The translations under genes were made by a program, and so were the position numbers. A stretch of DNA of 25,447 nucleotides. Origin: a virus (lineage: Duplodnaviria > Heunggongvirae > Uroviricota > Caudoviricetes). The notes under the pieces are model-generated. The model searched no databases. It saw nothing but the letters and a program-made list of their open reading frames with translations, and was not told the origin of the DNA. Positions 3,487-23,999 of this stretch are shown here, piece by piece (position 1 is the first letter of the stretch; each line of letters opens with the position of its first letter). The stretch lies in IMG/VR virus record IMGVR_UViG_2734482783_000014; one strand, 5' to 3'.

Positions 3487-3589
3487 AACGTGATGATTGT
3501 TATAGACACACGAAAAAAATTCGCTATTGTTGCTTTGTATGAGAAATCACACAAAACACGGTCAATTATTGAACAAAAAAGGAATCCCA

Positions 3590-4435: not shown

Positions 4436-4437
4436 GT

Positions 4438-4974: not shown

Positions 4975-4981
4975 TCAACAA

Positions 4982-5014
4982 GGTCACCAGCTTATCCTTT
5001 CGAATCTGGTGACC
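4982..5014. terminator. Inverted repeat (ggtcaccag ... ctggtgacc), probable bidirectional terminator between the convergent cargo operon and gene S
   Basis: 9-bp perfect stem at 4982..4990 and 5006..5014 with a 15-nt loop, lying between two convergent stop codons. Flanking U-runs are weak. Confidence 0.4.
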
Positions 5015-5061
5015 TATTAAATAAGAAAAAAAATAAAATCCAATAGACTTTATTTTAAGAG

Positions 5062-5511: not shown

Positions 5512-5935
5512 GTTTCACCGTCCACATTTCTTCAGGTTCATCGGGTTCCGCTACCGCTTCAACGCTCGACACACTGCCGTCAGTACTGACCAGCACCCGC
5601 TCCGTGAGTTGCAGGTTAAGGCTGATATCACAGACATCGTTGCGCAGAATATCCACCTCAAAAGTGAATAATTTTTCCCGTAACGCCGGGTTATTGATGG
5701 CATCGGGCTGGTTATCACGCAGCCACAGCAAAACTGGGGCCATCAGCAGATTCTGGTCGCCGCTGAAATCCTCAATCACCACGTTCAGGGTGTAACGGTA
5801 CTCCCATGACATGGAGCTGGCCCCCGTGGCAACCAGCGAACCGTTATCCACAAACAGATGCAGTTTGTCCGGGTTATTGCGGACATAAGTCACCGCTTTA
5901 TTGAGTGCGTGGCGCAGGGATTGTGGTTTGTTCAC
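5504..5935 (-). CDS. R: Tail completion protein gpR-like
   Basis: ORF in the expected position. GTG at 5935 has an AGGAG RBS; the longer ORF to 5956 begins with TTG and has no RBS. Confidence 0.7.
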   Translation of the reverse strand: MNKPQSLRHALNKAVTYVRNNPDKLHLFVDNGSLVATGASSMSWEYRYTLNVVIEDFSGDQNLLMAPVLLWLRDNQPDAINNPALREKLFTFEVDILRNDVCDISLNLQLTERVLVSTDGSVSSVEAVAEPDEPEEMWTVKRG

Positions 5936-6188
5936 TGTTTCGCTCCTGACACGCAATAATCATGTCCACTTTGTCTGCACAGACCGCCCAGGCGGCCTCC
6001 GTTTCATCCAGCAATGCGTTCAGATCACCGTTAGTGCGCGGCGCTGTCTGATCCAGTCGACACGGCGTCACTCGCGGACAACCACTGACGGTAAGCTGCA
6101 CCTCCGGTGAGTGCCGGACGTTCCCGCAGCCGGATAATGTCAGCAGGCAAAGGAGTATCAGCCCAGCGGCGTAAATCCTCGTTCTCAC
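5898..6188 (-). CDS. lysC: Outer-membrane spanin lipoprotein (LysC/Rz1-like), overlapping the 3' end of lysB
   Basis: N-terminal signal peptide with lipobox LTLSGC. The ORF starts inside lysB in another frame and extends past its stop. GAGGA RBS before GTG at 6188. Confidence 0.65.
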   Translation of the reverse strand: MRTRIYAAGLILLCLLTLSGCGNVRHSPEVQLTVSGCPRVTPCRLDQTAPRTNGDLNALLDETEAAWAVCADKVDMIIACQERNSEQTTIPAPRTQ

Positions 6189-6459
6189 GTTTCAGTTCCT
6201 CAATCCGATGTTGTCGTTGTCTCAGCAGCGCGCTGGTCTGTTCTGCTTCGGCATAGAGCCGCGCCTGCTCCCGGTTATTGGTTTCAGTTAGAATGGACAG
6301 GCTGATAAGCTGGCTGTTGCTCTTTGCCAGTGCCTGGCTTTTGCTCCGCAGCTCGTCTGCCTGCGTGCTGATGGTCTGGCTGGCATCAGCCAGCCGCCAC
6401 GTCTGCCAGCCCAGCGACGCCAGTAATAACGCCAGCACAACCAGCAGCAACCGGTTCAT
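6031..6459 (-). CDS. lysB: Inner-membrane spanin (LysB/Rz-like)
   Basis: N-terminal transmembrane helix (LLLVVLALLLASLGW) followed by a coiled-coil-like, Arg/Glu-rich periplasmic domain. ATG overlaps the lysA stop. Confidence 0.65.
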   Translation of the reverse strand: MNRLLLVVLALLLASLGWQTWRLADASQTISTQADELRSKSQALAKSNSQLISLSILTETNNREQARLYAEAEQTSALLRQRQHRIEELKRENEDLRRWADTPLPADIIRLRERPALTGGAAYRQWLSASDAVSTGSDSAAH

Positions 6460-6833
6460 GCTGCTACCTGTTGCGCCATCTGGTTACGAGTGATCCAGAA
6501 GGCAATAACGGTCAGCAGATAAAATACCAGGGTAATGGCCCACCCCGTCCAGGCGAGACTTACGATAATCAGCAATCGCATAACCCAGCTGATAAATACG
6601 TTTTCTTTTCGGGTAATGCTCTTCAGCAAAGATGCCCTCAACTCCTGCCAGAGCGGGCCGTTCTTAATTAACGCAACCAGTGCTACCGGAATTGCCACCC
6701 ATGTCAGCAGACAGGCTACCCAGACACCGGACGCTGCCAGTACCGGAAAAATCCCCTGTGGATACACCATTGCTGCGATTAACAGCGCCATCCATAACAT
6801 CAGAAACAGTCCGCTGATTAATTTCTTTTTCAT
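6456..6833 (-). CDS. lysA: LysA-like multi-pass membrane protein (lysis timing)
   Basis: Start MKKKLISGLFLML... at 6833, immediately after the K stop. Several hydrophobic helices. The longer ORF to 6905 would overlap K. Confidence 0.55.
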   Translation of the reverse strand: MKKKLISGLFLMLWMALLIAAMVYPQGIFPVLAASGVWVACLLTWVAIPVALVALIKNGPLWQELRASLLKSITRKENVFISWVMRLLIIVSLAWTGWAITLVFYLLTVIAFWITRNQMAQQVAA

Positions 6834-6834
6834 T

Positions 6835-7347
6835 TCAGTTTGCTCCCTGTAAGCACCAGGCCATCTCCCGCGCACGGCGGTTATCCAGCCCCTGATTAAA
6901 CACACCTTTCACATAAACCCAACGCGGCAACTGTCGGCACGCATCTGCCCAGCGCCGCTGATAGAGTAATTTCACCAGTGTGGAACTGCAGGCATTGCCC
7001 GTTCCCACGTTGAAGGCAAACGACACCGTAGCGTCATATACCTTCTGCGGCGGCTGTTGCTTCACACACCTTTCCAGCGCCCGCTCCACACGCAGCACGT
7101 TGGAAATCAGCCCTTCTGCTGCCTGTCGTTCCGTAATGGTTTTGCCGGGAATGACGCCAGACGTGTTACCAATGCCGTCGGTCCAGACACCCGCGCTGCA
7201 CTGATACGGCTGCAGACGACAGCCTTCGTAATCGGCAATCAGTTTCAGCCCCTCCACGGAGGTGTGAAGCTGCTGAAAACCCGGCAGCGTGGTAGCAATA
7301 GCCAGCACAGCCCCGACAAGGCAGCGTTTAACGACTGATGGATTCAT
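6835..7347 (-). CDS. K: Lysozyme (T4-lysozyme-like GH24 fold) with an N-terminal hydrophobic, possibly signal-anchor-release, segment
   Basis: Motif LIADYEGCRLQPYQCSAGVWTDGIGNT fits the Glu...Asp...Thr catalytic pattern of this fold. N-terminus VVKRCLVGAVLAIATTLPG is hydrophobic. Strong GGGAGG RBS before ATG at 7347. Confidence 0.8.
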   Translation of the reverse strand: MNPSVVKRCLVGAVLAIATTLPGFQQLHTSVEGLKLIADYEGCRLQPYQCSAGVWTDGIGNTSGVIPGKTITERQAAEGLISNVLRVERALERCVKQQPPQKVYDATVSFAFNVGTGNACSSTLVKLLYQRRWADACRQLPRWVYVKGVFNQGLDNRRAREMAWCLQGAN

Positions 7348-7543
7348 AGTCCTCCCGCGAGATCTGCCCGTCGCGCAGAAGCTGGTAGGCTTTGTGTTTG
7401 TAGTACCAGTTGATAGCCAGCATCAGCACACCAATCATCAGGCCGCCCAGCGTTGAGGCATCCTTGATGGACAAATCGCCCAGCCAGGCCAGCACGACGG
7501 CGATGCAATACGTGATAAAGGCGCTGATTCGCTCAAGCGTCAT
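7328..7543 (-). CDS. Y: Small two-TM holin (pinholin-like)
   Basis: 71-aa protein with two hydrophobic helices and a charged C-terminus (RDGQISREDYESISR), directly upstream of the lysozyme. Confidence 0.6.
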   Translation of the reverse strand: MTLERISAFITYCIAVVLAWLGDLSIKDASTLGGLMIGVLMLAINWYYKHKAYQLLRDGQISREDYESISR

Positions 7544-7546
7544 AAT

Positions 7547-7750
7547 TCAGTCCCATAGCTGGACGGTCTGCACGGTGGTGGTGGTCGGAATGTCCGGCAA
7601 CTCCACCTGCAGCCCGTGAGGTAAAAAGGGGCCGTATTCGGCAAGCCCCGGATTTGCCTTCAGTACCTGCTCCGTGACACCCTGCGTGCGCCCGTAATGA
7701 CGCCAGCAAAGCGCGTCCACCGTGTCATACTGATGCGCACGCACTTTCAT
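7547..7750 (-). CDS. X: Tail protein X-like (67 aa)
   Basis: Size and position match P2 gpX. ATG at 7750 overlaps the L stop (ATGA). Confidence 0.75.
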   Translation of the reverse strand: MKVRAHQYDTVDALCWRHYGRTQGVTEQVLKANPGLAEYGPFLPHGLQVELPDIPTTTTVQTVQLWD

Positions 7751-8214
7751 CAGATAAGCTCCACTGTGCAGTGCGGCGCATCCTGTACCCGGCTGATGGC
7801 CCAGCGGGCGTCACGCCATAAATCACCGCTGGCTTCCGCCAGCTCCTCGCCCCGCTTCACACCGGATGCCGTGGCGTCATAGTCCTGGTAACGTTCGTTG
7901 AGCATGGCGCGTGCCCAGCAGTAAACCGCGTTGAAATAGTGCTGAATGCGCTCACTTTTCCCATCCAGCTGTTCTGCCGGAACCTCTGCCAGCGAGGCAT
8001 ATCCCAGCATCTGCTGGCGTCTGCGAAACTCATACAGCTCTGCGTTGACCTCCGAAATTGCCGACAGCGCAACCTGCTTTAAACGCGGCTGCGTCACCGT
8101 GCCGTCAGTGCGCATCACACTGCGAAACTCCGACAGGTCCACATCAGGCCAGAACGGCGTATTTCTGATGATTTCCGCCTGTTCCGGTGCCTGTTCTGGC
8201 GCAACAAACTTCAT
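7750..8214 (-). CDS. L: Head completion/stabilisation protein gpL-like
   Basis: ATG at 8214 has an AGGAGA RBS; the longer ORF to 8277 would begin with GTG and no RBS. Position between M and X. Confidence 0.7.
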   Translation of the reverse strand: MKFVAPEQAPEQAEIIRNTPFWPDVDLSEFRSVMRTDGTVTQPRLKQVALSAISEVNAELYEFRRRQQMLGYASLAEVPAEQLDGKSERIQHYFNAVYCWARAMLNERYQDYDATASGVKRGEELAEASGDLWRDARWAISRVQDAPHCTVELI

Positions 8215-8309
8215 GCTGCTTTCTCCTGAAATAGAGGGCGGTGGACGGGGTTTTGATGTGGCTGTGCCTTTCGCCACCCCGTGCCGCCCGTGCGCGGGGG
8301 CACGTTCTG

Positions 8310-8960
8310 TCAGCGGCTGTCATTGCGCAGTCTGCGCTCCAGCTGCTGTTTGTCTTTTTTCACGCCACAGCGGGGATCGAGCTGTAACGCATGGTTGAGA
8401 TGATTAAGGGCAGACGCCGGATTGCTTTCACTCAGGACAGCGCCAATCGCTTTATGCAGACGCGCCCGTGACTGGTCCGGCATATCCAGACCGTCTGTCA
8501 GCTCCAGCGTCTGCAGCAACAGATCGGCATCAAAGCCGGTGGCGGCAAGCATTGCGCTCTGCGCTGCGTCTGCCATTTCCTCTGCCAGCACGGTCTGCAC
8601 GTTGCGGTTACCCAGTGGCATCACCCAGCCATGACGCAGGGCATGACGCCCGATCTCCAGCGCCCCGGCATAGTCTCCGGCATCAATGCGCCACAGCATC
8701 ACGTACATCAGCACGTCATCCTGTTGAGTGCCTCCGGCAGCCAGGACACCCTCTGCCCAGGCGGCGTACTTCGGCAGCAGCTCCACCTTTATTTCCGCTT
8801 TTTTCACCGTGGACTGAACGCCCTTGAGACGGCGGCGGTCTTCCGCCAGTTGCAGCAGCATCAGGTCATAGCCCGACGCGTGGCGAACGCTGCCGCCCTC
8901 GCGGGCGGCCTGTTCAGCCTGAACGCGCAGGCGATGCTGCCGTGCGGGACTCAGGCTCAT
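8310..8960 (-). CDS. M: Terminase small/endonuclease subunit gpM-like
   Basis: 216-aa ORF directly downstream of N in the P2 O-N-M-L order. ATG at 8960. Confidence 0.75.
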   Translation of the reverse strand: MSLSPARQHRLRVQAEQAAREGGSVRHASGYDLMLLQLAEDRRRLKGVQSTVKKAEIKVELLPKYAAWAEGVLAAGGTQQDDVLMYVMLWRIDAGDYAGALEIGRHALRHGWVMPLGNRNVQTVLAEEMADAAQSAMLAATGFDADLLLQTLELTDGLDMPDQSRARLHKAIGAVLSESNPASALNHLNHALQLDPRCGVKKDKQQLERRLRNDSR

Positions 8961-8963
8961 GGT

Positions 8964-10022
8964 TTACGCTCCGGCTTCTGCTGCGACGGCGCTGAAGTCG
9001 CCAATCTGGATGTTTTCCACCAGTGCGGCGCAGCGGTAGTCCTCAACCACATAGGCTTCATTAACGGATTCAAAGTTTTCAATCCGGTCACGTTTCGGGT
9101 TGTCGATAACTGAACGGCGGCGGGTGTCTTCCTGCCAGTAGATGGACAGGTTATCCAGACGGGTAATCAGCAGTGCATTCGGCGGGAAGAACGGCGCACG
9201 CACGGCCTGCAGGCCCCCCATGCGTTTCTGGCTGATGATCATATCGGCAGCCAGTTTTTCACTGTTTTCCTGCTCTTTGTTGACCAGCGGGAAATACTTG
9301 TCAGACAGCAGTTCACGACCGCAAATCACCACCAGATCGTCATCGTCCTGGTAGACCACATCGATAAGCTCATTGACGGCATCCATCACCACGGCGTCCA
9401 GGTTGGCATATTCGCCCCCTTTCCCGACTTTCACCGCGCCCGGTGTGGTTTCACCGCCCGTGGTGGTGCTGCCCATGACGTGATCCGGTGCATCCTCACG
9501 GATTTTCTGCAGCCAGCCTTTGTTCACATCCTGCAGCAGCGGGTTTTCACTACGGTTGGAGGTTTTCGCACGCTTCACGCCGTTAAAGCCGATCATGATG
9601 CGGTCCAGTGCCTGACGTTTCACGATGGCGTCACGGATACGCACCTGGAAATCCTGAAACTTCGCCCACAGGTCCAGCTTCGCGTAGGTCAGCACCGTGT
9701 CAAAGTTGGTCTGCTCGCATTTATATTCCACATCGACTATCAGCGTCGGATCGACAGGTTCACGCTCTTTCGCGGTGGTGTCAGTGGTTCCGGCAATGGT
9801 GCTGCCAACACCCAACCCCAGCAACTGACCGGACTGCTCAGTCACTGGCGTGACGTTAATCAGCGTCAGGAAAGCGGCGGACTGCTGGATCTGGTCTTCC
9901 AGCGTCTGCTGTACAGACGGCTCCACGGTGAACTTGCTGGACAGTTCTTCAACTGCCACACCGTTCAGACGCGCCAGCTGCTGCAGGTAAGCGTTAAAAG
10001 CAAAGCGGGTATTCTTCTTCAT
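8964..10022 (-). CDS. N: Major capsid protein gpN-like
   Basis: 352-aa protein; the stretch ...TRFAFNAYLQQLARLNGV...QDFQVRIRDAIVKRQALDRIMIGFNGVKRA...MIISQKRMG... is highly similar to P2 gpN as recalled. Confidence 0.9.
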   Translation of the reverse strand: MKKNTRFAFNAYLQQLARLNGVAVEELSSKFTVEPSVQQTLEDQIQQSAAFLTLINVTPVTEQSGQLLGLGVGSTIAGTTDTTAKEREPVDPTLIVDVEYKCEQTNFDTVLTYAKLDLWAKFQDFQVRIRDAIVKRQALDRIMIGFNGVKRAKTSNRSENPLLQDVNKGWLQKIREDAPDHVMGSTTTGGETTPGAVKVGKGGEYANLDAVVMDAVNELIDVVYQDDDDLVVICGRELLSDKYFPLVNKEQENSEKLAADMIISQKRMGGLQAVRAPFFPPNALLITRLDNLSIYWQEDTRRRSVIDNPKRDRIENFESVNEAYVVEDYRCAALVENIQIGDFSAVAAEAGA

Positions 10023-10038
10023 CAGGTTTTGTGCTCCA

Positions 10039-10872
10039 TCAGCAATTGGTCAGAGTGTCAGCGGGGGCGTTACCGCCTGTTGCACGCTGGCGGTAGTCCT
10101 GGCGGCTGTCTTCATGACTCAGCTTGTCCACCAGTTCGTTAAAGGCGGTCTGCTGTGCCTGCAGGGCAGTCTCCAGCTCAGACAGGCGTTCTTCCTGCTC
10201 AGACAGGGATTTTTCGGTGCGTGCGCTCAGGTTCTGCTGCTCAGTGGCGACCAGCTCCACGGCCTTATGCACATCAGAGAACCGGGCATCGTCGGACTGC
10301 TCTTTTTTGGTAAACAGCGCCGTGACGCGGGCAAACAGGGACGGTTTGTCGTCCTGGACTTCTTCCAGTTCGATCACCGTTTCCTCTGCGGCGGTAAAGA
10401 GATTGGCGGGATTCTGCTTGCGGTTTGCCAGCGGGTTATGGGCTGCACTGGCGCTGAATGTCAGCATTTCCGTACCCAGACTGGCAGGGTCATCAGTGGC
10501 AGCCAGGCCGACCAGGTAGGCTTTGCCCGTATCAGCGAACTTCGGACTGACTTCCATAGAGGTGAATAATTTCTGGCCTTTTTTCACCAGCTCCACCAGG
10601 GACTCCGTTGGCTCAACGTCGGCATACAGCGCCATCTTGCCTGCCAGCGGACCTTCCGTGATTTCTTCAGCAAACAGCGCCGTCACCTTGCCGTAGCGGT
10701 TAAAGGTGCTGTCCGGCAGATAAGACTTGATGTGCTCAAGGTTAATCAGCGCGGTATACACCGCCGGGTTGTAGCTGGCTGCCATCTGTTCCAGCCATTC
10801 ACGCTGGATTTCGCGTCCGTCGGTGGTGGCACCTTCCACCCCGATGCGAAAACGCTTTGCTTTCACTGTCAT
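10039..10872 (-). CDS. O: Capsid scaffolding protein gpO-like
   Basis: 277-aa protein with FRIGVEGATTDGREI...INLEHI...YLVGLAATDDPASLGTE... and C-terminal KATGG...TNC, matching P2 gpO as recalled. Confidence 0.85.
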   Translation of the reverse strand: MTVKAKRFRIGVEGATTDGREIQREWLEQMAASYNPAVYTALINLEHIKSYLPDSTFNRYGKVTALFAEEITEGPLAGKMALYADVEPTESLVELVKKGQKLFTSMEVSPKFADTGKAYLVGLAATDDPASLGTEMLTFSASAAHNPLANRKQNPANLFTAAEETVIELEEVQDDKPSLFARVTALFTKKEQSDDARFSDVHKAVELVATEQQNLSARTEKSLSEQEERLSELETALQAQQTAFNELVDKLSHEDSRQDYRQRATGGNAPADTLTNC

Positions 10873-11014: not shown

Positions 11015-12781
11015 ATGAACACCACACTGACACCCGCAGATCTCGATCCCCGTAGGCAGGCCATGCTGCTGTACTTTCAGGGATACCGCGTAGCCCGCAT
11101 TGCTGAAATGCTGGGCGAGAAAGTTGCAACCGTTCACAGCTGGAAGAAACGCGACAAGTGGGGTGACTATGGGCCGCTGGATCAGATGCAGCTCACCACC
11201 GCCGCCCGCTACTGCCAGCTCATTATGAAGGAGCACAAAGAAGGGAAAGATTTCAAAGAGATTGACCTGCTGGCGCGCCAGTCGGAGCGCCATGCACGGA
11301 TCGGCAAGTTTAACAATGGCGGCAACGAAGCCGACTTAAACCCTAACGTCGCCAACCGCAACAAAGGCCCACGCCGTCAGCCGGAAAAGAATGTTTTCAC
11401 CGATGAACAGATTGAAAAGCTGGAGGAAATCTTCCATTCCTCCATGTTCAACTACCAGCGCCACTGGTGGGAAGCCGGAAAAACCAATCGCATCCGTAAC
11501 CTGCTGAAGTCTCGCCAGATCGGCGCGACCTTCTATTTTGCCCGTGAAGCCCTGATTGACGCCCTGCTGACCGGACGTAACCAGATTTTCCTTTCTGCCA
11601 GTAAGGCTCAGGCCCACGTCTTTAAACAGTACATCATCGACTTCGCCAAAGAAGTCGAAGTGGAGCTGAAAGGCGATCCGATGGTGCTTCCCAACGGGGC
11701 CACGCTTTACTTCCTCGGCACCAATGCCCGCACGGCGCAGAGTTACCACGGCAACCTGTATCTGGATGAATATTTCTGGATACCGAAATTCCAGGAGCTG
11801 CGCAAAGTGGCTTCCGGTATGGCTATTCACAAGAAATGGCGACAGACCTATTTTTCCACGCCATCCAGCCTGACCCACAGTGCTTATCCGTTCTGGTCCG
11901 GTGCGCTGTTCAACCGTGGACGCAACAAAGCCGACAAGGTGGACATCGACCTGTCCCACAGCAATCTGGCCCCCGGCCTGCTGTGCGCAGACGGGCAATA
12001 CCGCCAGATAGTCACCGTGGAAGATGCAGTGCGCGGCGGCTGTAACCTGTTCGACCTTGACCAGTTGCGCATGGAGTACAGCCCGGATGAATACCTGAAC
12101 CTGCTGATGTGCGAGTTCGTGGACGATCTCGCGTCCGTGTTTCCGCTCAGCGAGCTGCAGGCGTGCATGGTGGACAGCTGGGAAGTCTGGACCGACTTTC
12201 ATGCACTGGCCCTTCGCCCGTTTGGCTGGCGCGAAGTGTGGATCGGTTATGACCCGGCAAAAGGTACGCAGAACGGCGACAGCGCCGGATGCGTGGTGGT
12301 GGCACCGCCAGCCGTGCCGGGCGGTAAGTTCCGCATTCTTGAGCGTCACCAGTGGCGCGGGATGGACTTCCGCGCCCAGGCTGACGCCATCAAAAAACTG
12401 ACCGAACAGTACAACGTGACCTACATCGGTATCGACTCAACCGGCGTTGGTCACGGGGTTTATGAGAACGTGAAAGCATTCTTTCCTGCCGTCCGGGAGT
12501 TTGTCTACAACCCCAACGTTAAAAACGCCCTGGTGCTCAAGGCCTACGACATTATCAGCCACCGCCGTCTGGAGTTTGACGCCGGACACACCGACATAGC
12601 GCAGTCATTCATGGCAATCCGTCGCGCCACCACCGCCAGCGGCAACCGCCCGACCTATGAAGCCAGCCGCAGCGAAGAAGCCAGCCATGCCGATCTGGCC
12701 TGGGCAACAATGCACGCACTGTTTAACGAACCGCTGCAGGGCGAATCCGCCAATACCAGCAATATTGTGGAGATTTTTTGA
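11015..12781 (+). CDS. P: Terminase large (ATPase) subunit gpP-like
   Basis: 588-aa ORF divergent from O, of the size and position of P2 gpP. Stop overlaps the Q start (TGATG). Confidence 0.9.
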   Translation: MNTTLTPADLDPRRQAMLLYFQGYRVARIAEMLGEKVATVHSWKKRDKWGDYGPLDQMQLTTAARYCQLIMKEHKEGKDFKEIDLLARQSERHARIGKFNNGGNEADLNPNVANRNKGPRRQPEKNVFTDEQIEKLEEIFHSSMFNYQRHWWEAGKTNRIRNLLKSRQIGATFYFAREALIDALLTGRNQIFLSASKAQAHVFKQYIIDFAKEVEVELKGDPMVLPNGATLYFLGTNARTAQSYHGNLYLDEYFWIPKFQELRKVASGMAIHKKWRQTYFSTPSSLTHSAYPFWSGALFNRGRNKADKVDIDLSHSNLAPGLLCADGQYRQIVTVEDAVRGGCNLFDLDQLRMEYSPDEYLNLLMCEFVDDLASVFPLSELQACMVDSWEVWTDFHALALRPFGWREVWIGYDPAKGTQNGDSAGCVVVAPPAVPGGKFRILERHQWRGMDFRAQADAIKKLTEQYNVTYIGIDSTGVGHGVYENVKAFFPAVREFVYNPNVKNALVLKAYDIISHRRLEFDAGHTDIAQSFMAIRRATTASGNRPTYEASRSEEASHADLAWATMHALFNEPLQGESANTSNIVEIF

Positions 12782-13815
12782 TGGGAAAGAGTAAGAAAAA
12801 CCGCGCTGCGTCGACGAACCAGATTCAGCATAAAAGCCAGACTTCAGCCGAAGCATTCAGCTTTGGCGATCCCATTCCAGTACTGGACCGCCGCGAACTG
12901 CTGGACTATGTGGAATGCGTACAGACGGATCGCTGGTATGAGCCACCCGTAAGTTTTGACGGACTGGCGCGCACCTTCCGCGCTGCCGTGCATCACAGTT
13001 CCCCGATTGCCGTAAAGTGCAACATTCTGACCAGTACCTACATCCCTCACCCGCTGCTCAGCCAGCAGGCTTTTTCACGTTTTGTGCAGGACTATCTGGT
13101 ATTTGGTAACGCCTACCTGGAGAAACGCACGAACCGATTCGGTGAAGTTATCGCCCTTGAGCCTACTCTGGCAAAATACACCCGACGCGGATTAGACCTG
13201 GATACCTACTGGTTTGTGCAATACGGCATGACCACGCAGCCGTATCAGTTCACGAAAGGCAGCATCTTTCATCTGATGGAACCGGACATCAACCAGGAGA
13301 TCTACGGCCTGCCCGGTTATCTTTCTGCCATTCCGTCAGCCCTGCTCAACGAATCCGCCACGCTGTTCCGCCGCAAGTATTACATTAACGGTAGTCATGC
13401 AGGCTTCATCATGTACATGACCGATGCCGCGCAGAACCAGGAGGATGTGAACAACCTCCGCAATGCGATGAAAAGCGCCAAAGGCCCTGGTAACTTCCGC
13501 AATCTGTTTATGTACTCGCCTAACGGCAAAAAGGACGGACTTCAGATTATCCCGTTGTCAGAAGTCGCAGCGAAGGATGAGTTTCTGAATATCAAAAACG
13601 TGAGCCGTGACGACATGATGGCGGCACACCGTGTGCCGCCTCAGATGATGGGGATTATGCCGAATAATGTTGGGGGTTTTGGGGATGTGGAGAAGGCTAG
13701 TAATGTATTTGTACGCAATGAACTAATACCATTGCAAAAAAGATTTGAAGAGTTAAATGTTTGGTTAAAAGAAAAAGTGATACAGTTCGAAGAATATAAA
13801 CTTCATTCAAATTAG
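12781..13815 (+). CDS. Q: Portal protein gpQ-like
   Basis: ATG at 12781 (the tabulated ORF begins 3 nt earlier at TTG). 344 aa, following P. The last ~150 bp are AT-rich. Confidence 0.85.
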   Translation: MGKSKKNRAASTNQIQHKSQTSAEAFSFGDPIPVLDRRELLDYVECVQTDRWYEPPVSFDGLARTFRAAVHHSSPIAVKCNILTSTYIPHPLLSQQAFSRFVQDYLVFGNAYLEKRTNRFGEVIALEPTLAKYTRRGLDLDTYWFVQYGMTTQPYQFTKGSIFHLMEPDINQEIYGLPGYLSAIPSALLNESATLFRRKYYINGSHAGFIMYMTDAAQNQEDVNNLRNAMKSAKGPGNFRNLFMYSPNGKKDGLQIIPLSEVAAKDEFLNIKNVSRDDMMAAHRVPPQMMGIMPNNVGGFGDVEKASNVFVRNELIPLQKRFEELNVWLKEKVIQFEEYKLHSN

Positions 13816-13847: not shown

Positions 13848-15098
13848 TTATCGCCATTTTAGATAAAAAGCAAAAAATGGATCAGTAATATGCAACTTTC
13901 GGTCCTCCTTATCCCAATCTATTACAGGAGTTGAAGCTTCTTCCGTAGCAGCTATTTTAGCCATTTTTTCTATAACACGAGTAACCTCATGAGCTTGTGG
14001 AGGAGTATCTTGCACCAGTTCGCGTATGGCTGATCTTAACTCCTCATACTGAATACTTTGCATTCCTGGTTTCATATGTGACAATGCATATAATACAACT
14101 TTATATATATCTACTTCCTCACCACTTTTCAGTTTTCTAGGAATTCTGTCAGTTCGCTGATTAGGGCCACTAGCTAACTTATCAAATACTATTTTCCCAG
14201 TGGATTCTGCAACCTTTCTAAAAATATCATCATCTAAAGAATTAATAACTAACTTACTCGACAAAGTTTCTTTAACATTATTTGCTAAGCATATAGCCTT
14301 GCAAAACTCTTGCATTAAATGAGGACTTCCCAATGATTCATTGGCAATTTTATCAATTACTGAATCACTAACTTCCATGTTTAACAGAGGAAATCCCACT
14401 TTTGCTATTTGTTTTAGTTCATCCATTTCCCACGAAGGCATGGAAATATTTTCTAGCCGTCCGGTAATTTCTTTTTCAACTTTTACAGCATCATACCTTC
14501 GATGTGGAATGGCTATCAGTACAACTGGTACTCCATCAAAAACTAATGGTTTTATCGCTCTAATAAAGTTACCTTGTAGGTCACGATCGAGGTAATGAAA
14601 GTCATCAATTATAAGACTAGACTTGGTTTGAGAGAGAACTTTTAGTGCAGAACTTTTTGCGGATATCGTTCGCGATTTTTTATTACCATTTGACTTTCCA
14701 TCCGTCTGAACTAAACCAGCCTCACCTGTACCTTTAACAACTAATGCACTTGCGGTCCCCGATACCTTACCACTAACTGCAATAGCACTATTTTCTCCAG
14801 AATTAACTTCAATACTATGGTAGCCATTTAGTTTTTCTAATACCTGCTCCCAAATATCATCTTCAGTTGTAATACTCCCACCGTCAATCCATACAACATC
14901 ATCGTCCATGACTGGGAATACCATTCTTGTAATTACAGTCTTACCAGACTTTGTTTGCCCAGTTAAAGTTACTAACTTACATAAATTATCTTTAGCACTC
15001 TCCAGTTTTCCATGAACCTCTCCTTCAGAGCGCTCAACATAAGTCAATTTCGGCATACCGCCTGGCACAAAAACTTGTGAAGCACGTTGTTTATCCAT
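13848..15098 (-). CDS. P-loop NTPase, 416 aa, AAA+/STAND-like (cargo gene)
   Basis: Walker A GQTKSGKT and Walker B-like SSLIIDDFHYL, followed by a largely helical C-terminal half. AT-rich with an AT-rich upstream region at 15100..15190. Sits between Q and the putative cos site. Confidence 0.7.
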   Translation of the reverse strand: MDKQRASQVFVPGGMPKLTYVERSEGEVHGKLESAKDNLCKLVTLTGQTKSGKTVITRMVFPVMDDDVVWIDGGSITTEDDIWEQVLEKLNGYHSIEVNSGENSAIAVSGKVSGTASALVVKGTGEAGLVQTDGKSNGNKKSRTISAKSSALKVLSQTKSSLIIDDFHYLDRDLQGNFIRAIKPLVFDGVPVVLIAIPHRRYDAVKVEKEITGRLENISMPSWEMDELKQIAKVGFPLLNMEVSDSVIDKIANESLGSPHLMQEFCKAICLANNVKETLSSKLVINSLDDDIFRKVAESTGKIVFDKLASGPNQRTDRIPRKLKSGEEVDIYKVVLYALSHMKPGMQSIQYEELRSAIRELVQDTPPQAHEVTRVIEKMAKIAATEEASTPVIDWDKEDRKLHITDPFFAFYLKWR

Positions 15099-15205
15099 GA
15101 ATACTTCCCAATTAACACCGTTCTAGTGAACTACGATTCTAAAATAACATCTGAGCTTGGACTATTAACATTACATGATTTGAGTATTCAAAGCCACAAG
15201 CGCGC

Positions 15206-15224
15206 GCTCGTATCCCCGCCACGC
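15206..15224 (-). other. Candidate cohesive-end (cos) site
   Basis: Minus strand reads GGCGTGGCGGGGATACGAG. The first 13 nt match the 186 cos sequence GGCGTGGCGGGGAAAGCAT as I recall it (P2: GGCGAGGCGGGGAAAGCAC). Orientation relative to Q matches the P2 arrangement. The region is GC-normal between two AT-rich cargo blocks. Confidence 0.4.
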
Positions 15225-15270
15225 CTGCCCGCTTTATGTAGTGGTTTTCATGCAGATGCATGCTCTACGC

Positions 15271-15297
15271 AAAAGCCCGCCAGTTCTGGCGGGCTTT
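15271..15297. terminator. Rho-independent terminator (aaaaGCCCGCCagttctGGCGGGCtttt), bidirectional
   Basis: GC-rich 7-8 bp stem flanked by an A-run and a T-run, immediately downstream of the minus-strand three-gene operon. Confidence 0.55.
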
Positions 15298-15361
15298 TGC
15301 AAAAACGATCCTCAAACGATCATGCGATTTCATGCAGCATAGTCATGCAAAGTAGAAACTG

Positions 15362-15778
15362 CTATTTAACGTCCGGCGTTTGCGCTGTGGGGGATACTTT
15401 TCCATCTAGCGTATTTACAATTGAGAGGGGGTAAATTCCCATTTCAATTCCACAAATCACGTCGTAACGAGCCTGCGCTTTCTCTCGCATTTCTTGAGAA
15501 ACAGGGGACGATGGTGCATTTAAAACTGCTTCGGCTTGCTTCTTCAGAGCTTTCAACCGTCTTTTCAGTTTGATTTCTTGCGGATCAACAGCATAAATCG
15601 TCCATGCAAAAGTAAAAACTTCGCTTAAAAGAATTGACACCATCGGTATTGAAGCAATGTAAAGGTCTTTCCATGTTGGATCTGTAATGAAGCTAGCCAG
15701 CTTTATTAGGAAAAGGCCTACGCCGCCGCCACCAGTAACACCGACTGCTTTACCGCTTGTTTTCTTTTGTTCAGGCAT
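15362..15778 (-). CDS. Small membrane protein with two predicted TM helices (third gene of cargo operon)
   Basis: From ATG at 15778: MPEQKKTSGKAVGVTGGGGVGLFLIKLASFI... plus a second hydrophobic helix IASIPMVSILLSEVFTFAWTIYAV, then a charged C-terminus. Start overlaps the end of the upstream gene by 8 bp. Confidence 0.55.
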   Translation of the reverse strand: MPEQKKTSGKAVGVTGGGGVGLFLIKLASFITDPTWKDLYIASIPMVSILLSEVFTFAWTIYAVDPQEIKLKRRLKALKKQAEAVLNAPSSPVSQEMREKAQARYDVICGIEMGIYPLSIVNTLDGKVSPTAQTPDVK

Positions 15779-16034
15779 GAGAGGCTGACTCCTTCCTCTC
15801 ACGCTTATTTTTCTCTGCTATATCATCGATGAGCTTTATTAACTCATCATCATTGTTTATATAAATATTTGTTTTATAGACATTTTTGTTTGCATCAGTA
15901 TAAGTGATAGAAACTTTTGTTTCGACAATAACTCGATCGAGCAGGCTACGTATAGCCACTCTAGCACCTATAAATATAGCTGGAGCTGCAACAAGCAGCC
16001 CCAACCATCCTAACACACTAATATCTATAGACAT
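15771..16034 (-). CDS. Small single-TM protein, 87 aa (second gene of cargo operon)
   Basis: N-terminal helix ISVLGWLGLLVAAPAIFIGARVAI followed by a polar Asn/Asp/Lys-rich domain. Begins 2 bp after the upstream gene's stop. Confidence 0.55.
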   Translation of the reverse strand: MSIDISVLGWLGLLVAAPAIFIGARVAIRSLLDRVIVETKVSITYTDANKNVYKTNIYINNDDELIKLIDDIAEKNKRERKESASHA

Positions 16035-16036
16035 TT

Positions 16037-16930
16037 TTAATCCGCATCAGGTTTTATTTTTCTATCTTTGGCGGCAAAGTGTCGACCCACTTTGATGATC
16101 GATAACTTTTCGTCTACCTGGCCACCGGAATCTTTCACAATTTTCTTCATCTTCACAGCAAACAATTCGCCAAAAATTTTGGGGGCGTCTGGTCCAGTAA
16201 CAAGCTTGATGAACTCATTATCTTCCATTCTGACATTGCGCTTTTCACCGCCAAACTCAACACGCCAGCCACTTTTTTTGTCAGTATGCGCCGAAACGAA
16301 TGTCACGGTTGTTTCAAATTCGTCAACTTCTTCTTTGGTTTCAAAGAGAACTTTTGGCGACTTAAACTCTTCTGCCTCATCTTTATGAATTTTGAGGATT
16401 TCTTTCTTAGAGGTGCGCGATTTTTTTACCACAAAATTGTCGATACCATCTTGTAACAGAGGCTGTCTGACAAACGCGTCAACAGCCTTACGAATCTCTG
16501 GGGCATTAACGATTTTTTCGACATCTTCAGAGCAAACAATCTCTTCACCATCGACTTTCAGCTTAACTTTGTCACTACCGTTAGCTTTCTCGACTATGTC
16601 GATCTTACGCCCGTTAAGCTTCTTGAGAACCTCTAAAACTGTAGCACCGCCAACGGCTAAAGGAATGGCTGACAAACCTAAAATTTGTACAACATCTTTA
16701 GCATTAGCTAGATGTTGTACAACCTCAATATCAAACCCAAAGGAACCGGCTATCAATTCAGCGTCAACGTTAACTTCAATGTCTCGCCCTCCGTTTACAA
16801 TCTCATTTGCAGAGTAGATAGCCTCACCTAGCCCCTGCAAACTTTTCGCAAACGAAAGAATATCCATCTTATGATCGTCGAGAGCTTTGCCTTGATACAC
16901 AATACTTACTGATTGAGTCTTATCCGCCAT
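16037..16930 (-). CDS. Hypothetical soluble protein, ~297 aa (first gene of cargo operon)
   Basis: Long AT-rich ORF, Lys/Glu/Asp-rich, with no recognisable catalytic motif. ATG at 16930; the tabulated ORF starts at TTG 16951. Confidence 0.6.
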   Translation of the reverse strand: MADKTQSVSIVYQGKALDDHKMDILSFAKSLQGLGEAIYSANEIVNGGRDIEVNVDAELIAGSFGFDIEVVQHLANAKDVVQILGLSAIPLAVGGATVLEVLKKLNGRKIDIVEKANGSDKVKLKVDGEEIVCSEDVEKIVNAPEIRKAVDAFVRQPLLQDGIDNFVVKKSRTSKKEILKIHKDEAEEFKSPKVLFETKEEVDEFETTVTFVSAHTDKKSGWRVEFGGEKRNVRMEDNEFIKLVTGPDAPKIFGELFAVKMKKIVKDSGGQVDEKLSIIKVGRHFAAKDRKIKPDAD

Positions 16931-17066
16931 TGAGTTCAGATCCGTTGCCAATAAAATGCGCGCGATTTTACGCCCATCACTATGTTTAATCTATCTATTA
17001 ATCATTTATCCCTCTAGCTGTCTACTATCGGACTCAAAAAACATGACTCATTACAAACGAAACCTA

Positions 17067-17300
17067 TCAATGCAGCCAGCTGTCGTCTTCCCACACCTTC
17101 TGCATAATTTTCAGCACTTGTTTTCTTTCTTCGTCCAGTTGCAGTCCGGTCAGTTCCACACCGTTAGAGCTACCTTTGCGGATACGAATTACCGTTTTGG
17201 GATACAGGAGGCGCAGATTGCGGTAAAGCTCGGATTCAAGGGCATCCAGGGTAGACTGGCTAATCTTCTGCTCTTTATCGATCATTATTTCAATGCGCAT
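17067..17300 (-). CDS. dinI: DinI-family protein (DNA-damage-inducible protein I-like)
   Basis: From ATG at 17300: MRIEIMIDKEQKISQSTLDALESELYRNLRLLYPKTVIRIRKG...ELTGL...QKVWEDDSW, the DinI pattern (MRIE... start, acidic C-terminus). GAGGTG RBS. Confidence 0.75.
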   Translation of the reverse strand: MRIEIMIDKEQKISQSTLDALESELYRNLRLLYPKTVIRIRKGSSNGVELTGLQLDEERKQVLKIMQKVWEDDSWLH

Positions 17301-17310
17301 AAAAGTCACC

Positions 17311-17499
17311 TCAGCTGATGACATCCATTGAGCGGTTGTATTCGTGGGTTCTGATTTTTGCCATGAGTTCATCTGTCAGTTCAGAAACCCACTGCAGAGC
17401 CAGCCCCTTCTCTTCATCACTACACTCACTAGCCGCTACAAGCTTAAGAAAAAAATCAATGCGCTGTAGCTTCAAAGACTCCAAAAAATAGTCCTGCAT
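17311..17499 (-). CDS. Small SOS-regulated ORF (62 aa), in the position of the 186 tum antirepressor but much shorter
   Basis: Perfect AGGAGG RBS 4 nt before ATG at 17499. A LexA box overlaps the predicted -10 upstream. Function is inferred from position only. Confidence 0.45.
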   Translation of the reverse strand: MQDYFLESLKLQRIDFFLKLVAASECSDEEKGLALQWVSELTDELMAKIRTHEYNRSMDVIS

Positions 17500-17651: not shown

Positions 17652-20066
17652 TTAATACAGGTTCCGCCACTTATCATCTTCCTGCAAACGCTGGTTCCGA
17701 TAGAAGATACGCAGGCCTGCTCCTGACGGAATACTGCCGCCGCGAAGGAGTAAATCGACCTCTTTCTCGCTACCATCAAATCCTCTGGACTTCAGCTCAT
17801 AGACGAGCTGCAGTCGCTGATGGTCTGTAATTCGCTGTTTGTAGTCTTTACGCCGTTTCGGTTTAACCAGGCGTAACCTTGCAGCCAGTTCCCGGCGCTC
17901 TTTTTTGCTCATACTGTGCAGGTAATCGTGCAACTCCTTGTCATCCATGCGGGTAATGTCCGTTCTGGTGTCCCCATCAGCTGATTTGTCTTTCCCTTGT
18001 TGGTTCAAATTTTCAGCAAGGGGACAGTTATTGCCACGAGTCCAAGGGGCGCAAGCGCCCTGGTCGGCTGCCGCCTCCTGAACGTCAACGGCCTTACGAA
18101 CCATTTTCCACTTCACTGCATGAGTGCAGATCTTGCCCTCTGCAATGGGTGACCAGATGCCATAAATACGAATACCGTGATCGCCATAGGCGGTTGGCTC
18201 TTCGTTGATTTCATAAGCGGTTCTGATGAGGTGATATTTGCGGGGAACCAGTACGCCGCCCTGCTTCATGATGTAGGTGGCAAAACAACCAGCATCAGCA
18301 GCAGCCAGGATGGCATCAAGGCGCGGGTTATCCAGTACCGGCGCACCTGCTTTTTTGTCACCCTGTTGCCTTGCCGCCTGACCAGCCAGCAATCGCAGTT
18401 CACGGTAAGCCTGACGCCCCGGAATGCCAAAGAAGCGGAATTGCTGAACACGATGCAGAGACGCCCAGGCATTAACGTATTCAGCGTTATCACGCAGGGA
18501 TTTACCCGTTTCCTTACTGATCTCGCCAGCCAGACCACGCCCGTCAATATTCTTACTGATATATTTCGCAATGTAGCTTGTCGGCGTTCCTTTGCGCGGG
18601 TTTATCAGCTCAGACTTAAAGCGCGGCCCCGTGTTATTGCCCAGCTCCTCGCGGTCTTCACGGATGGCAAACTTACGCAACAATGCAGTAATGGCGCGGC
18701 GGTCTTTTTTGCGCATGAAACACAACAGGTGCCAGTGAACTGTGCCGTCATGATGCGGCTCAGCCACCCGCACGCCATACCAGCGCAACCCGGCTTTGTG
18801 CATAGCCTTACGAAATGCAGCAAACATACCGACCAGATAATCACTGCTTTGTCTTACCGTCGCATTTGTCCAGGTCGGGTTGGGCCTGCCGTTATTTAGC
18901 GTGGAATGGAAACGTGACGGGCAGGTGATGGTGTAGAAAACGGCGCAGTCACCACGCATTTCCGCGATAAGCTCCAGACCTTTAACACAGGCCATCATCT
19001 CATTGCGGCGATGCGCAGGGTTGCTGCTGCTGGCGTTTACCACGTCTTCCATATCCAGCGTGTCGCCGTCTTCGTTCACCAGTTCATGAGAACGGAAAAA
19101 CTCCAGCGACTTACGGCGCTGCTCACGTTTATGCATCACGGCTTCATAGCTGACATAGGGAGATGCTTTTTTGCTGACCAGGCAAACAGCACGCAACTGC
19201 TCTTCCCGCCATTCGCAACGCATCTTCCATAATTTCCGATACCACCAGTCGGCGCATAACATACGCGCCAGCGAACCCGGAATGAGTTCATAAGGCACGG
19301 GTTTACGGCGGTTTCTTTTCCGACAGAGTTGCTCAAACGCAGGCGGGATAACATCCAGACGCAGGGTTTCCGCTGCCACCTTTTCCCATGTCTTGCGGAT
19401 TTCTTCTGGCGTAACATCATCGGTGGCATACAAATCGCCACAAGCTGTATCAAGGCACATGCTCATATGCGCAGCTACCAAGGTGGACAGGCGTTTCACC
19501 TGATCCTGACTCATTTCAGGCAGGATCAGCAGGCCGTCCAGCCCTTCATGGCTTGCCATAAAGCGAAAAGAAGTGGATAGCTGACTGTCGCGTACATGCT
19601 CCAGTCGTTCCAAGCATGGCTTAATCGTCTCACGCAAATAGCGGGAATAAGCCTTTGGCCTGCCCAGGCTGCTGAAGTATTTAATACGTTGCATCAGCGG
19701 CTTGCTGATATGGGAAGGCTGGGCGTTGACGTCCGCCAGAATGGCCATGTCTGGATTAAAACGCTGCTGCTCATGCGCCAGCTTTGCCCGGCTAATTAGC
19801 TTATCCTGCTCCATTTCGCGTTGGACAGGATCACGGGATTCATTAAAGAAATAACGCTCCCAGACCTGATCACTCAGTGCCTCGCGGCGCAGTTGTTCCT
19901 GCTCGTTATCGGCAGCGTACAGAGTGATCAGGTTTGAAAGCGCAGAAACCGGCGCAACTTCCGCCGGGTCCAGATAAGGGTTAATGGCCTTTTTCGGGCT
20001 GTTCCATGAGAATGCTGCGGCGACCTCGTTAAAGCCGCTGCAGTTGTTCATATCAGCATGGCTCAT
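17652..20066 (-). CDS. A: Replication initiation protein gpA-like (rolling-circle nickase)
   Basis: Contains [15 protein letters not shown] and [13 protein letters not shown], the metal-binding and active-site tyrosine motifs of P2 A-family initiators. ATG at 20066 overlaps the Dam stop (ATGA); the longer ORF extends to 20093. Confidence 0.9.
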
Positions 20067-20920
20067 GCACGCACTCCGTACACGACGGAACAATCCACGC
20101 CACGCGAAGGATCAAATCCTACCCAGCAGCGCGGCCCGGAAACAGCGATGATTTCTGTTGCAGATTTACTCTCACCAGCTGCCACGCCGATGCTGCGTTT
20201 TGCCTTGATGTAGTGGTGAGTAAAATTGCGATACAGCGAACGGATCAGGGATGTGTCACTGTTAGAAACAATGACCGGATGACCTTCAGATGATCGATGT
20301 TCAAGAACGGATGCCAGGTGATACTGGTCATCTTCAGTGAAGCCATCAGTGTGATAGCCGGAAAACGTACCGTCATAAGGCGGATCGCAATACACCACAT
20401 CCCCCGCCTTCAACATCGCCAGCGTTTCATCAAAGCTGGCGCAGATAAACGTTGCCCGCTGGGCTTTCTCTGCAAATGCGCGAATTTCTTTTTCAGGGAA
20501 ATACGGATTTTTATAATTACCGTAGGGAATGTTGAAATACCCGCTCTTGTTATAGCGACATAGCCCACGGTAACCATGACGATTGAGATACAGAAAATAT
20601 ACCGCTTTCATGAAATCAGTAATTTCAGTGGAGTAATTAAACTCCTGCCTTATGTTGTAATAAGCCACCTCTCTGTTTGCTTCCTCAAATAAAGCTCTGG
20701 CACGAGATATAAACGCCTCACAATCAGCAGCAACCTTTTTATAGAGGTTGATTAAATCAGGATTAATATCCGAAACCAGATAGCTGGGGTAATCCGTCTC
20801 CATCATCACAGCACAAGAACCCGCGAAAGGTTCAACCAGTCGCGTGCCAGCAGGAAGGTATTTTTTCAGTTCGGACATAATGGTGGTTTTATTACCCGCC
20901 CATTTCAGGATGGTGCTCAT
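20063..20920 (-). CDS. dam: DNA adenine (N6) methyltransferase, Dam family
   Basis: From ATG at 20920: [11 protein letters not shown]..., FAGSCAV, and the catalytic DPPY motif ([10 protein letters not shown]). AGGAGG RBS; start overlaps the upstream stop. Confidence 0.85.
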
Positions 20921-21219
20921 ACAGCACCTCCTGCAATAACATATCCTAAAGCTTCTAATGGGGTTAATGAGCGAATTGATAGCATCACCCATTGTTCTGA
21001 AACTGCCATGACGTCATTAACCGGAAGCACATGAGAGATAACCGCGGCCCATTCCCTACCCGTAAATACGCCATGCTTCCATTCGCAAAGAGAAAGAACA
21101 TCACCAACTTTATAGCCACGATCGTCTTTACGAAGTTCAGCCGTCTTTTGACCTGCAACCACAGCGTTGAAATACTTAGGTGCAATTTTTAATTGATGGA
21201 TACGCACAGCCCCTGTCAT
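20917..21219 (-). CDS. DUF3850/ASCH-like small protein
   Basis: From ATG at 21219: [40 protein letters not shown], which resembles the DUF3850 N-terminal pattern as I recall it. GGAGG RBS; ATGA overlap with the upstream gene. Confidence 0.6.
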
Positions 21220-23284: not shown

Positions 23285-23429
23285 AAGGCAACATTCCTTC
23301 TAGATATGGCTTGTGGCGAGCCGTTGTTTGTCGTGATTAGTAGTGAAGGCTCCAAAAGAACACTTCTGGTTCAACTTTAAGATCGCTTTTGGAATCTGTC
23401 AACGAATTTTGGATTTCTTTGGAGGACTT
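23285..23429. promoter_or_regulatory. Immunity switch region between the Apl-like and CI genes (expected face-to-face lytic and lysogenic promoters and repressor operators)
   Basis: 145-bp intergenic region between divergent regulatory genes, containing a short direct repeat ttttgga (23392..23398 and 23406..23412). Individual promoter and operator elements were not resolved. Confidence 0.4.
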
Positions 23430-23999
23430 GTGGATTTCAATAGCGGCGGTAAGAAAGCCATAGAACGTTTAGTTGAAGCATATGGGTTCGGTACTCGTCA
23501 GGCTCTCTGTGATCATTTAGGTGTTTCTAAGAGCACCATGGCAACGCGCTATATGCGTGATATTTTTCCAGCAGATTGGGTAATCCAGTGCGCCCTTGAA
23601 ACGGGCACCTCGCTTAATTGGCTAACAACAGGGCATGGTTCAAAGCAAGCATCAGCAAATACAAATACTATAGAAGTAGAAAAATATTTATTGTCTGATG
23701 GAGCATTGCAGAAAGACGGTTTTTATATTTTTGATAAGGGATTTCTACCCTCTACGTTTAAAAAACCTTTTGTCATCACAGATAACAATTCTGAATTTAT
23801 TTGTGATAAAGAATTTGATGATATACGTGATGGTAAATGGGTAATAAGTATTGATGGCGAAATAACGATCCGTGACATTACTCGTTTACCCGGTGGAAGA
23901 ATCTTCGTCGAGGGTGGAAACAGAGCCTTCGAATGCAAGATAGAAGACATTGAAATAATTGGTAAAATTATAAGTTTAACAGTCAAGTATGTTAAATAG
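23430..23999 (+). CDS. cI: 186-type CI immunity repressor
   Basis: From GTG at 23430 (GGAGG just upstream): ...IERLVEAYGFGTRQALCDHLGVSKSTMATRYMRD...CALETGTSLNWLTTGHG aligns with the recalled 186 CI N-terminal domain (LDRICEAYGF...CALETGANLKWLLTGEG). 189 aa versus 192 in 186. The longer ORF from 23343 has no start support. Confidence 0.75.
   Translation: MDFNSGGKKAIERLVEAYGFGTRQALCDHLGVSKSTMATRYMRDIFPADWVIQCALETGTSLNWLTTGHGSKQASANTNTIEVEKYLLSDGALQKDGFYIFDKGFLPSTFKKPFVITDNNSEFICDKEFDDIRDGKWVISIDGEITIRDITRLPGGRIFVEGGNRAFECKIEDIEIIGKIISLTVKYVK

Follow-up and report, generated by a model that had tools for sequence, protein, structure and literature searches.

A three-gene cassette of a P2/186-like Escherichia coli prophage with a homologue of mycobacteriophage MichelleMyBell gp29: a candidate anti-phage module

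RESULTS AND DISCUSSION

A prophage cassette with a homologue of MichelleMyBell gp29

We have found a three-gene cassette in an Escherichia coli prophage that probably is an accessory anti-phage module of the type of gp29/gp30 of mycobacteriophage MichelleMyBell. Judging from sequence comparison and from analogy with the mycobacterial system, we put the probability of this reading at about 0.6. The window analyzed here is the whole 25,447-nt stretch of DNA of IMG/VR virus record IMGVR_UViG_2734482783_000014; it represents a P2/186-like (Peduoviridae) E. coli prophage, reversed relative to the usual P2 map. The three genes, designated A, B and C, lie on the minus strand of the window, as the open reading frame (ORF) calls of the first-pass annotation, made from the sequence without database searches, had placed them. 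The reading rests mainly on the homology of A to gp29 and on the behaviour of the three genes as exchangeable prophage cargo, which together leave anti-phage defence, suspected already at first pass, as the best-supported function.

Gene A (16037..16930, minus strand) encodes a soluble protein of 297 aa. It matches the NCBIfam family NF053583, ‘LAPAL motif-containing putative phage structural protein’, over the full length with 191.6 bits (the curated cut-off is 60), and PHROG 3243 (function unknown) over the whole length. The PADLOC comparison recommended at first pass was run as well and matched A to PDC-S42 (7.8e-44; residues 12–295 against profile positions 3–293 of 302); the PDC entries of PADLOC are untested candidates, with members embedded in BREX, DISARM or type I restriction–modification loci. 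The three matches contradict the initial description of A as a protein with no recognisable motif and no named family. In an exhaustive profile search the A family comprised 3600 clusters at 50% identity, nearly all of ∼280–320 aa and of one architecture.

The connection with a known defence system came from a depositor's note, MMB_gp29_gp30__gp29, on a Vibrio homologue, which pointed to MichelleMyBell (KF986246). The gp29 protein (310 aa; gene at 4383–5315 of the MichelleMyBell extract) aligned with the A-family profile over 268 columns with an hhalign probability of 98.5% (E 1.6e-15), and hmmsearch gave 2.2e-24. The gp29 sequence itself scored 181.4 bits on NF053583 and 1.6e-16 on PDC-S42. 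Pairwise identity of A and gp29 is only ∼20%; on the evidence of the profiles A is a full-length homologue of gp29. By the same comparisons, the gp29 of DefenseFinder, the PDC-S42 of PADLOC and the LAPAL ‘structural protein’ of NCBI appear to be one family under conflicting labels, and the NCBI product name should therefore be reconsidered. As a product name, ‘putative phage structural protein’ is probably an error and, as it now spreads through RefSeq, probably misleads. We found no paper equating gp29, PDC-S42 and the LAPAL family, and a literature search for PDC-S42, DUF7946 and ‘LAPAL motif’ returned nothing. DefenseFinder detects the MMB_gp29_gp30 type in 23 cultured phage genomes. The first-pass view of the operon as the strongest candidate for an undescribed system had to be given up, A being homologous to the validated gp29, which DefenseFinder already models.

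Other searches with A were less informative. In Pfam none of the three proteins had a match that reached the threshold, and a PDB sequence profile search with A gave no match. The N-terminal motif of A (YDG..H..D...LA.aL..LG; residues 8–38, window positions 16880–16930) has a weak likeness to Pfam DUF7946 (E 0.007–0.04), and the N-terminus aligned at an hhalign probability of 26% with the soluble protein of the ‘HP + 4TMs’ cassette from the P4 hotspot (Table S2B of Rousset et al. 2022), a cassette that was tested there without a phenotype. These likenesses may reflect an N-terminal module shared by cassettes of soluble and membrane proteins, or chance; they are too weak to use. A DuOB match in one member of the A family (E 0.031) is suggestive at most.

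Predicted structure and conserved residues of protein A

The AlphaFold2 model of A has a mean predicted local distance difference test score (pLDDT) of 81.5 and a predicted template modelling score (pTM) of 0.63. Its N-terminus is a strand-helix-hairpin region bearing the YDG, ‘LAPAL’ and GSF motifs of the family, followed by a mixed middle region. At the C-terminus (residues 199–285) the model shows a beta1-beta2-beta3-helix-beta4-beta5 arrangement, the predicted topology of an oligonucleotide/oligosaccharide-binding (OB) fold. Structure prediction with Foldseek had been suggested at first pass. For A, nothing significant was found against the PDB, and against BFVD the matches were all to uncharacterised phage proteins, one of them from the cluster N phage Pipsqueaks.

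Residues Y12, G62, W222 and F240 are invariant across the family, and D13, G14, F64, R147 and D237 nearly so. The invariant residues are mostly aromatic or glycine, and conservation across the family gave no catalytic signature. A candidate AxSxG motif with an Asp-His triad near A61–G65 was dropped since S63 and H20 are not conserved family-wide. Lacking a catalytic signature, A is probably a binding protein, with nucleic acid as a possible ligand.

Organization of the cassette

Downstream of A lie gene B (15771..16034, minus strand; 87 aa) and gene C (15362..15778, minus strand; 138 aa from its ATG). The start of A was placed at the ATG at 16930, with the support of homologue alignments and RefSeq; the mechanical ORF runs to the first TTG at 16951 (16037..16951, 304 aa). 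On the same two grounds C was started at the ATG at 15778, the mechanical ORF from the GTG at 15802 giving 146 aa. The genes are translationally coupled. Between A and B, the stop codon TAA of A is separated by a 2-nt spacer from the ATG of B, while the reading frames of B and C share 8 nt (ATGCCTGA). The overlap of B and C is thus as first reported; the ‘4-bp junction’ given for A and B was slightly off.

B has one strong N-terminal hydrophobic segment at residues 5–23 (Kyte–Doolittle 19-residue maximum 2.15), a single transmembrane (TM) helix with a predicted cytoplasmic tail of ∼55 aa. In C, the same scale gives a Gly-rich segment at residues ∼12–31 (maximum 1.49) and a second segment at 39–64 (1.74). 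Both are kept in homologues, with a GGGG invariant in the first, and an AlphaFold2 model of low confidence (pLDDT 62.6) has helices at 18–31 and 37–63. After the hydrophobic helices C continues with a very basic amphipathic helix and then a further helix, predicted to be cytoplasmic. A has a single hydrophobic stretch at 80–102 (1.83); this stretch bears charged residues in homologues, and A is therefore best read as soluble. Of the TM counts proposed at first pass, one for B and none for A agree with these data, and two for C are plausible. By the positive-inside rule, the soluble parts of both B and C would face the cytoplasm. B had no family match in Pfam, PADLOC or NCBIfam, and C had none in Pfam, PADLOC, NCBIfam or PHROG.

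The cassette is AT-rich, as had been noted: at a GC content of 0.411 it stands below gpA (0.53) and the terminase and portal genes (0.54) of the backbone. The operon is closed by an intrinsic terminator, also recognised at first pass, with a hairpin core at 15269..15300 (minus strand; free energy −32.6 kcal/mol, z −5.96 against shuffled sequences) that lies within a conserved spacer described below. Upstream, a leader of 136 bp (16931..17066, minus strand) between the stop of a DinI-like gene and gene A forms the upstream edge of the swapped cassette. Within the leader a TAGATT-17 nt-TAAAAT arrangement can be made out by eye, a weak promoter candidate at best.

The A-B-C trio in other viruses

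Downstream of every A homologue at 48–62% identity lie homologues of B (32–37% identity) and C (36–41%). B and C were directly downstream in all 17 of 17 IMG/VR loci with a homologue of the A1 clade, and in A1-clade loci C always came downstream of B. Proteins of the C family were found only beside A. The contexts of the trio are unrelated. A Klebsiella prophage carries it; in lambdoid prophages of Proteus it follows immediately on the gene for a cI-like S24 repressor, on the strand of that gene; a siphophage of Proteus has it between its tail chaperone and tape measure genes; and in a Mu-like phage it is flanked by Mu G and protease I.

In Proteus mirabilis a module of 1842 bp, 99% identical, is present at two unrelated prophage positions, one next to cI and one in a tail gene cluster (trio modules at 5756–7588 and 5748–7588 of the two extracted loci). 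The module begins 245 bp upstream of A and stops 38 bp past C. Such identity at unrelated positions indicates a recent transfer of a self-contained module.

Among 50,697 cultured phage records searched by tblastn, a match was found in one and none in the other 50,696. The one record is Vibrio phage 10N.286.45.F8_PE001 (PQ189332.1), a 14.4-kb temperate PM2-like element (Vinavirales, tailless). It carries an A homologue (31.5% identity) followed by genes for proteins of 83 and 161 aa, which give weak but specific matches to the B and C profiles; this trio (7980–9584 of the PQ189332.1 extract) adjoins the integrase of the element. The finding indicates that the cassette crosses between tailed and tailless virus realms.

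The Proteus arrangement bears on an alternative account of the cassette, modelled on RexA/RexB of phage lambda, in which rexAB lies next to cI. Under this account A would be a cytoplasmic sensor of phage DNA or of protein–DNA intermediates, and B and C would form a membrane pore or depolariser that kills the cell, as RexA activates RexB. The two systems share a prophage-borne layout of a cytoplasmic protein (∼280–300 aa in the comparison, ∼300 aa for A) with one or more small membrane proteins, here with tight translational coupling, and, by analogy, the cassette would share an outcome of the abortive-infection type. The Proteus trio, downstream of its repressor, holds the position of rexAB; among 120 ORFs immediately upstream of distant A homologues, ∼6 likewise encode cI/LexA-like (S24/HTH) repressors, and the invariant GGGG in the first TM segment of C, together with its basic amphipathic helix, would suit such a membrane role. 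No sequence or fold similarity of RexA or RexB to A, B or C was detected, and RexB is one protein with four TM helices. We regard a Rex-like mechanism as unlikely.

Behaviour as exchangeable cargo in E. coli and P2-like prophages

In a megablast search against 5426 complete E. coli genomes the whole cassette was found in eight, whereas the 150 bp just downstream of it, containing the terminator and the cos region, were found in 1275 at ∼90–97% identity. By BLAST, homology to other prophage backbones ends exactly at the DinI stop (17069) and restarts at 15349. The conserved backbone spacer with the terminator and cos region (15199–15349) bounds the cassette slot downstream. Within it, at 15207–15225 and nowhere else in the window, is a cos-like 19-mer, GGCGTGGCGGGGATACGAG, which resembles the P2/186 cohesive end. 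The cassette slot therefore has cos on one side and the DinI/gpA end of the genome on the other; in the P2 map this is the place of tin and old. The first-pass assignment to a variable cos-to-A cargo slot of the old/tin type is borne out.

In strain A30 two unrelated genes occupy the cassette slot. Strain PEC148 has the same trio and, between cos and portal, a SieB-family gene in place of a gene for a 416-aa ATPase that the window carries at that position. In IMG/VR P2-like contigs with the trio, this second slot on the other side of cos is also freely variable. The cos spacer separates two slots of the hotspot that vary independently of each other, one on either side of cos. The comparison across related prophages, with few carriers among many backbones, sharp edges and other cargo in the slot, supports A-B-C as a discrete cargo cassette of the cos-to-A hotspot that is swapped as a unit and is not core, as had been suspected.

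A hotspot between gpA and cos has been described in P2 (PMC9122126), and most of the cargo tested from it is defensive (Rousset et al. 2022, PMC9122126; 2026 preprint). The exact three proteins appear 12 times, as ‘hypothetical’, among the P2-hotspot cargo tabulated by Rousset et al. 2022. In the 2026 P2/P4 preprint, which we checked for tests of the cassette, none was found and the proteins are likewise catalogued as ‘hypothetical’.

The distribution also bears on whether A could be a structural or morphogenetic protein of the phage, with B and C in an accessory role in the virion or in its assembly. In its NCBIfam and RefSeq product names A is called structural, and some homologues do lie inside head or tail clusters (Mu G–protease I; tail chaperone–tape measure). 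The trio is nevertheless found at regulatory, head, tail and cos-proximal sites, in phages of the myo-, sipho- and Mu-like types as well as in a PM2-like virus that has no tail; it is rare among prophages of the same backbone (the 8 versus 1275 genomes above) and in cultured phage records (the single tblastn match); and many homologues reside in non-phage chromosomal islands. Furthermore, A has no structural similarity to capsid or tail proteins, and a member of its family, gp29, has a demonstrated defence role. We consider a structural role highly improbable.

Comparison with gp29/gp30 and other known systems

The closest known system to the cassette is MichelleMyBell gp29/gp30. According to PMC8549241, a MichelleMyBell prophage costs phage Tweety 4–5 logs in plating, and escape maps to Tweety gene 54. 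PMC6426606 classes gp29/gp30 as typical abortive infection whose action comes after adsorption and injection of the DNA, while PMC11856565 calls gp29 toxic and gp30 a putative membrane protein and gives no known mechanism. In the two systems the large subunits are homologous, both are prophage cargo of temperate phages, and downstream of the gene for the large soluble protein, overlapping or abutting it, comes one for a small membrane protein. They differ in that B (87 aa) has one TM helix and C (138 aa) two, while the mycobacterial system has a single gp30 of 67 aa with two hydrophobic segments, its gene overlapping gene 29; and in that the host here is a gammaproteobacterium instead of a mycobacterium.

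Several points weigh against the reading of the cassette as a gp29/gp30-type defence module. The gp29/gp30 phenotypes come from secondary sources and concern the mycobacterial system only. In comparisons of the B and C profiles with gp30, hhalign gave a probability of ≤0.2% and hmmsearch no match, so that only the gp29 half of the known two-component definition has a counterpart here. Among the distant members of the A family, most are solo genes without membrane partners, and in three to four loci distant members have Mu G upstream and protease I downstream; solo members and the location of some amid Mu head genes make a role in the phage's own cycle possible for part of the family. A sigma-70 scan of the leader (16931..17066) found no site on the minus strand and no convincing promoter upstream of A, and for this reason expression in the lysogen is something that we infer. 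Finally, A, B and C are absent from the systems cloned by Rousset et al. 2022, where they are catalogued only.

In a distant proteobacterial and candidate phyla radiation subfamily (∼25% identical to A, 80 loci), homologues of B and C were absent, and a TM protein was seldom encoded downstream. The mixed contexts of this subfamily also include MerR-regulated chromosomal islands of Burkholderia and ordinary housekeeping neighbours. Burkholderia homologues had at one stage been taken to lie ahead of tape-measure genes; this was dropped when Pfam gave MerR regulators and unknown proteins in chromosomal islands. Because B and C are unlike gp30, and C is found only beside A, the core of the family is the gp29-like protein, with small membrane proteins recruited independently in different lineages. 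From sequence, the cassette would be a gammaproteobacterial three-gene form of the known gp29 defence family, and the B and C configuration would be what is new.

Other systems were compared too. PDC-S42 is defined as a single gene; A matches its model at full length, and gp29 matches it too, but A is strictly linked to B and C. The P2 genes old and tin have the same genomic position between gpA and cos and are accessory exclusion genes, although their products (OLD nuclease, Tin) are unrelated to A, B and C. Rst_2TM_1TM_TIR of the P2-like phage AC1, which is validated cargo (Rousset et al. 2022), shares the hotspot and the number of genes, with a 2-TM, a 1-TM and a soluble protein; the soluble protein of AC1, however, is a TIR enzyme, and A is without an enzymatic motif. 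Rst_3HP of E. coli E1114 is validated three-gene cargo of the same P2 hotspot. BLASTP of A, B and C against the six Rst_3HP and Rst_2TM_1TM_TIR proteins (Table S2A) gave E >0.2 in all cases, and identity of the cassette with Rst_3HP was dropped, the cloned proteins (345, 360 and 230 aa) being unrelated.

Possible mechanisms

If the cassette is a module of gp29/gp30 type, it could work as follows. It would be expressed from the prophage, and B and C, as translationally coupled small inner-membrane proteins, would stand in for the single 2-TM gp30 and hold or regulate A in a latent state at the inner membrane. When a heterotypic phage injects its DNA, A would be activated or released and might bind nucleic acid or a replication protein via the OB-fold region; growth arrest would ensue and the infected cell would yield no phage, the outcome of abortive infection.

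For a defence module, we tentatively allow that A is a latent toxic protein restrained by B and C. A division of labour in which A senses and B and C kill seems a slightly more doubtful choice. A as the growth-arresting component is slightly favoured because solo homologues are common and gp29 is reported toxic. Rather doubtful, in our estimate, is a distinct membrane-coupled abortive-infection system in which A, through its OB-fold region, detects single-stranded phage DNA or intermediates of replication and an inner-membrane complex of B and C acts as its switch or is itself switched by A, the whole being a module of 1.7–1.8 kb that moves among tailed and PM2-like viruses. If it were true, Rex-like logic would have been built from unrelated parts, and the E. 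coli cassette would offer an entry to the mechanism of the gp29/PDC-S42 family.

Two accounts without abortive infection also deserve mention. In the first, B and C, with A tethered to them, would block DNA entry in the manner of Sie/Imm-type superinfection exclusion proteins, without cell death. B and C are indeed small inner-membrane proteins at a prophage cargo site, and cargo at the adjacent position elsewhere includes SieB-family and Imm_superinfect proteins. The MichelleMyBell system, though, is described in PMC6426606 as acting once phage DNA is inside; a conserved 300-aa cytoplasmic protein with a predicted OB fold would be unexpected for a pure entry block; and A has solo homologues with no membrane component. 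Envelope exclusion appears quite improbable on this balance.

In the second, the cassette would serve addiction in the manner of toxin–antitoxin pairs, prophage maintenance or another lysogenic conversion, with no defence role. The reported toxicity of gp29 (PMC11856565) and the compact coupled operon on mobile elements would fit. The homologous mycobacterial cassette, on the other hand, protects by 4–5 logs (PMC8549241), and the hotspot is one where most tested cargo is defensive (Rousset 2022; 2026 preprint); both functions would be compatible in one cassette. As a sole function, addiction strikes us as very unlikely. The three other accounts, an entry block, addiction alone and a structural function, are each less likely than the two defence models in which A is either the restrained toxin or the sensor.

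So far only mycobacteriophages have provided a validated gp29/gp30 defence; with a form of it in the well-studied P2-type hotspot, E. coli would be a tractable model. Across lineages, gp29-like proteins occur alone, with gp30, or with B and C, a turnover that leads one to ask how the parts of sensor, effector and regulator are shared out among the components.

Prophage backbone and other cargo in the window

The remaining genes of the window follow the P2/186 backbone. Capsid and scaffold genes lie at 8964–10872 (minus strand), the terminase ATPase gene at 11015–12781 and the portal gene at 12778–13815 (both plus strand). Beyond the cassette come the DinI-like gene (17067–17300; PF06183, 5.5e-21), the replication endonuclease gene gpA (17652–20093), a Dam methylase gene (20063–20992) and a 186-type CI repressor gene (23343–23999), with the integrase gene further on. 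The interval 17067–17499 (minus strand), between the cassette and gpA, contains the DinI-like gene and a 62-aa PHROG 698 gene; both recur in many hotspot entries of Rousset Table S5 and are conserved backbone rather than cargo. The spacer at 15199–15349 is also conserved in phages of Klebsiella, Salmonella, Yersinia and Erwinia.

The second slot of the hotspot, between cos and portal, holds a separate cargo gene (13848–15098, minus strand; GC 0.37) encoding the 416-aa P-loop ATPase. Its Pfam match to AAA_22 (9.3e-06, 26.4 bits) is slightly below the 27-bit cut-off, and a TniB-like match has an E-value of 0.0018. The protein matches the PADLOC candidate PDC-S59 (4.6e-32) and has a weak LmuA/DUF4297-like stretch near the C-terminus.

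A third island of low GC content (0.34–0.36), at 3527–4974 of the plus strand, is located between tail and baseplate genes on the opposite strand. It encodes a 178-aa protein without a family match and a ParA/MinD-type ATPase (AAA_31, 3.7e-35; weak PDC-M28B match), and may be another prophage cargo site.

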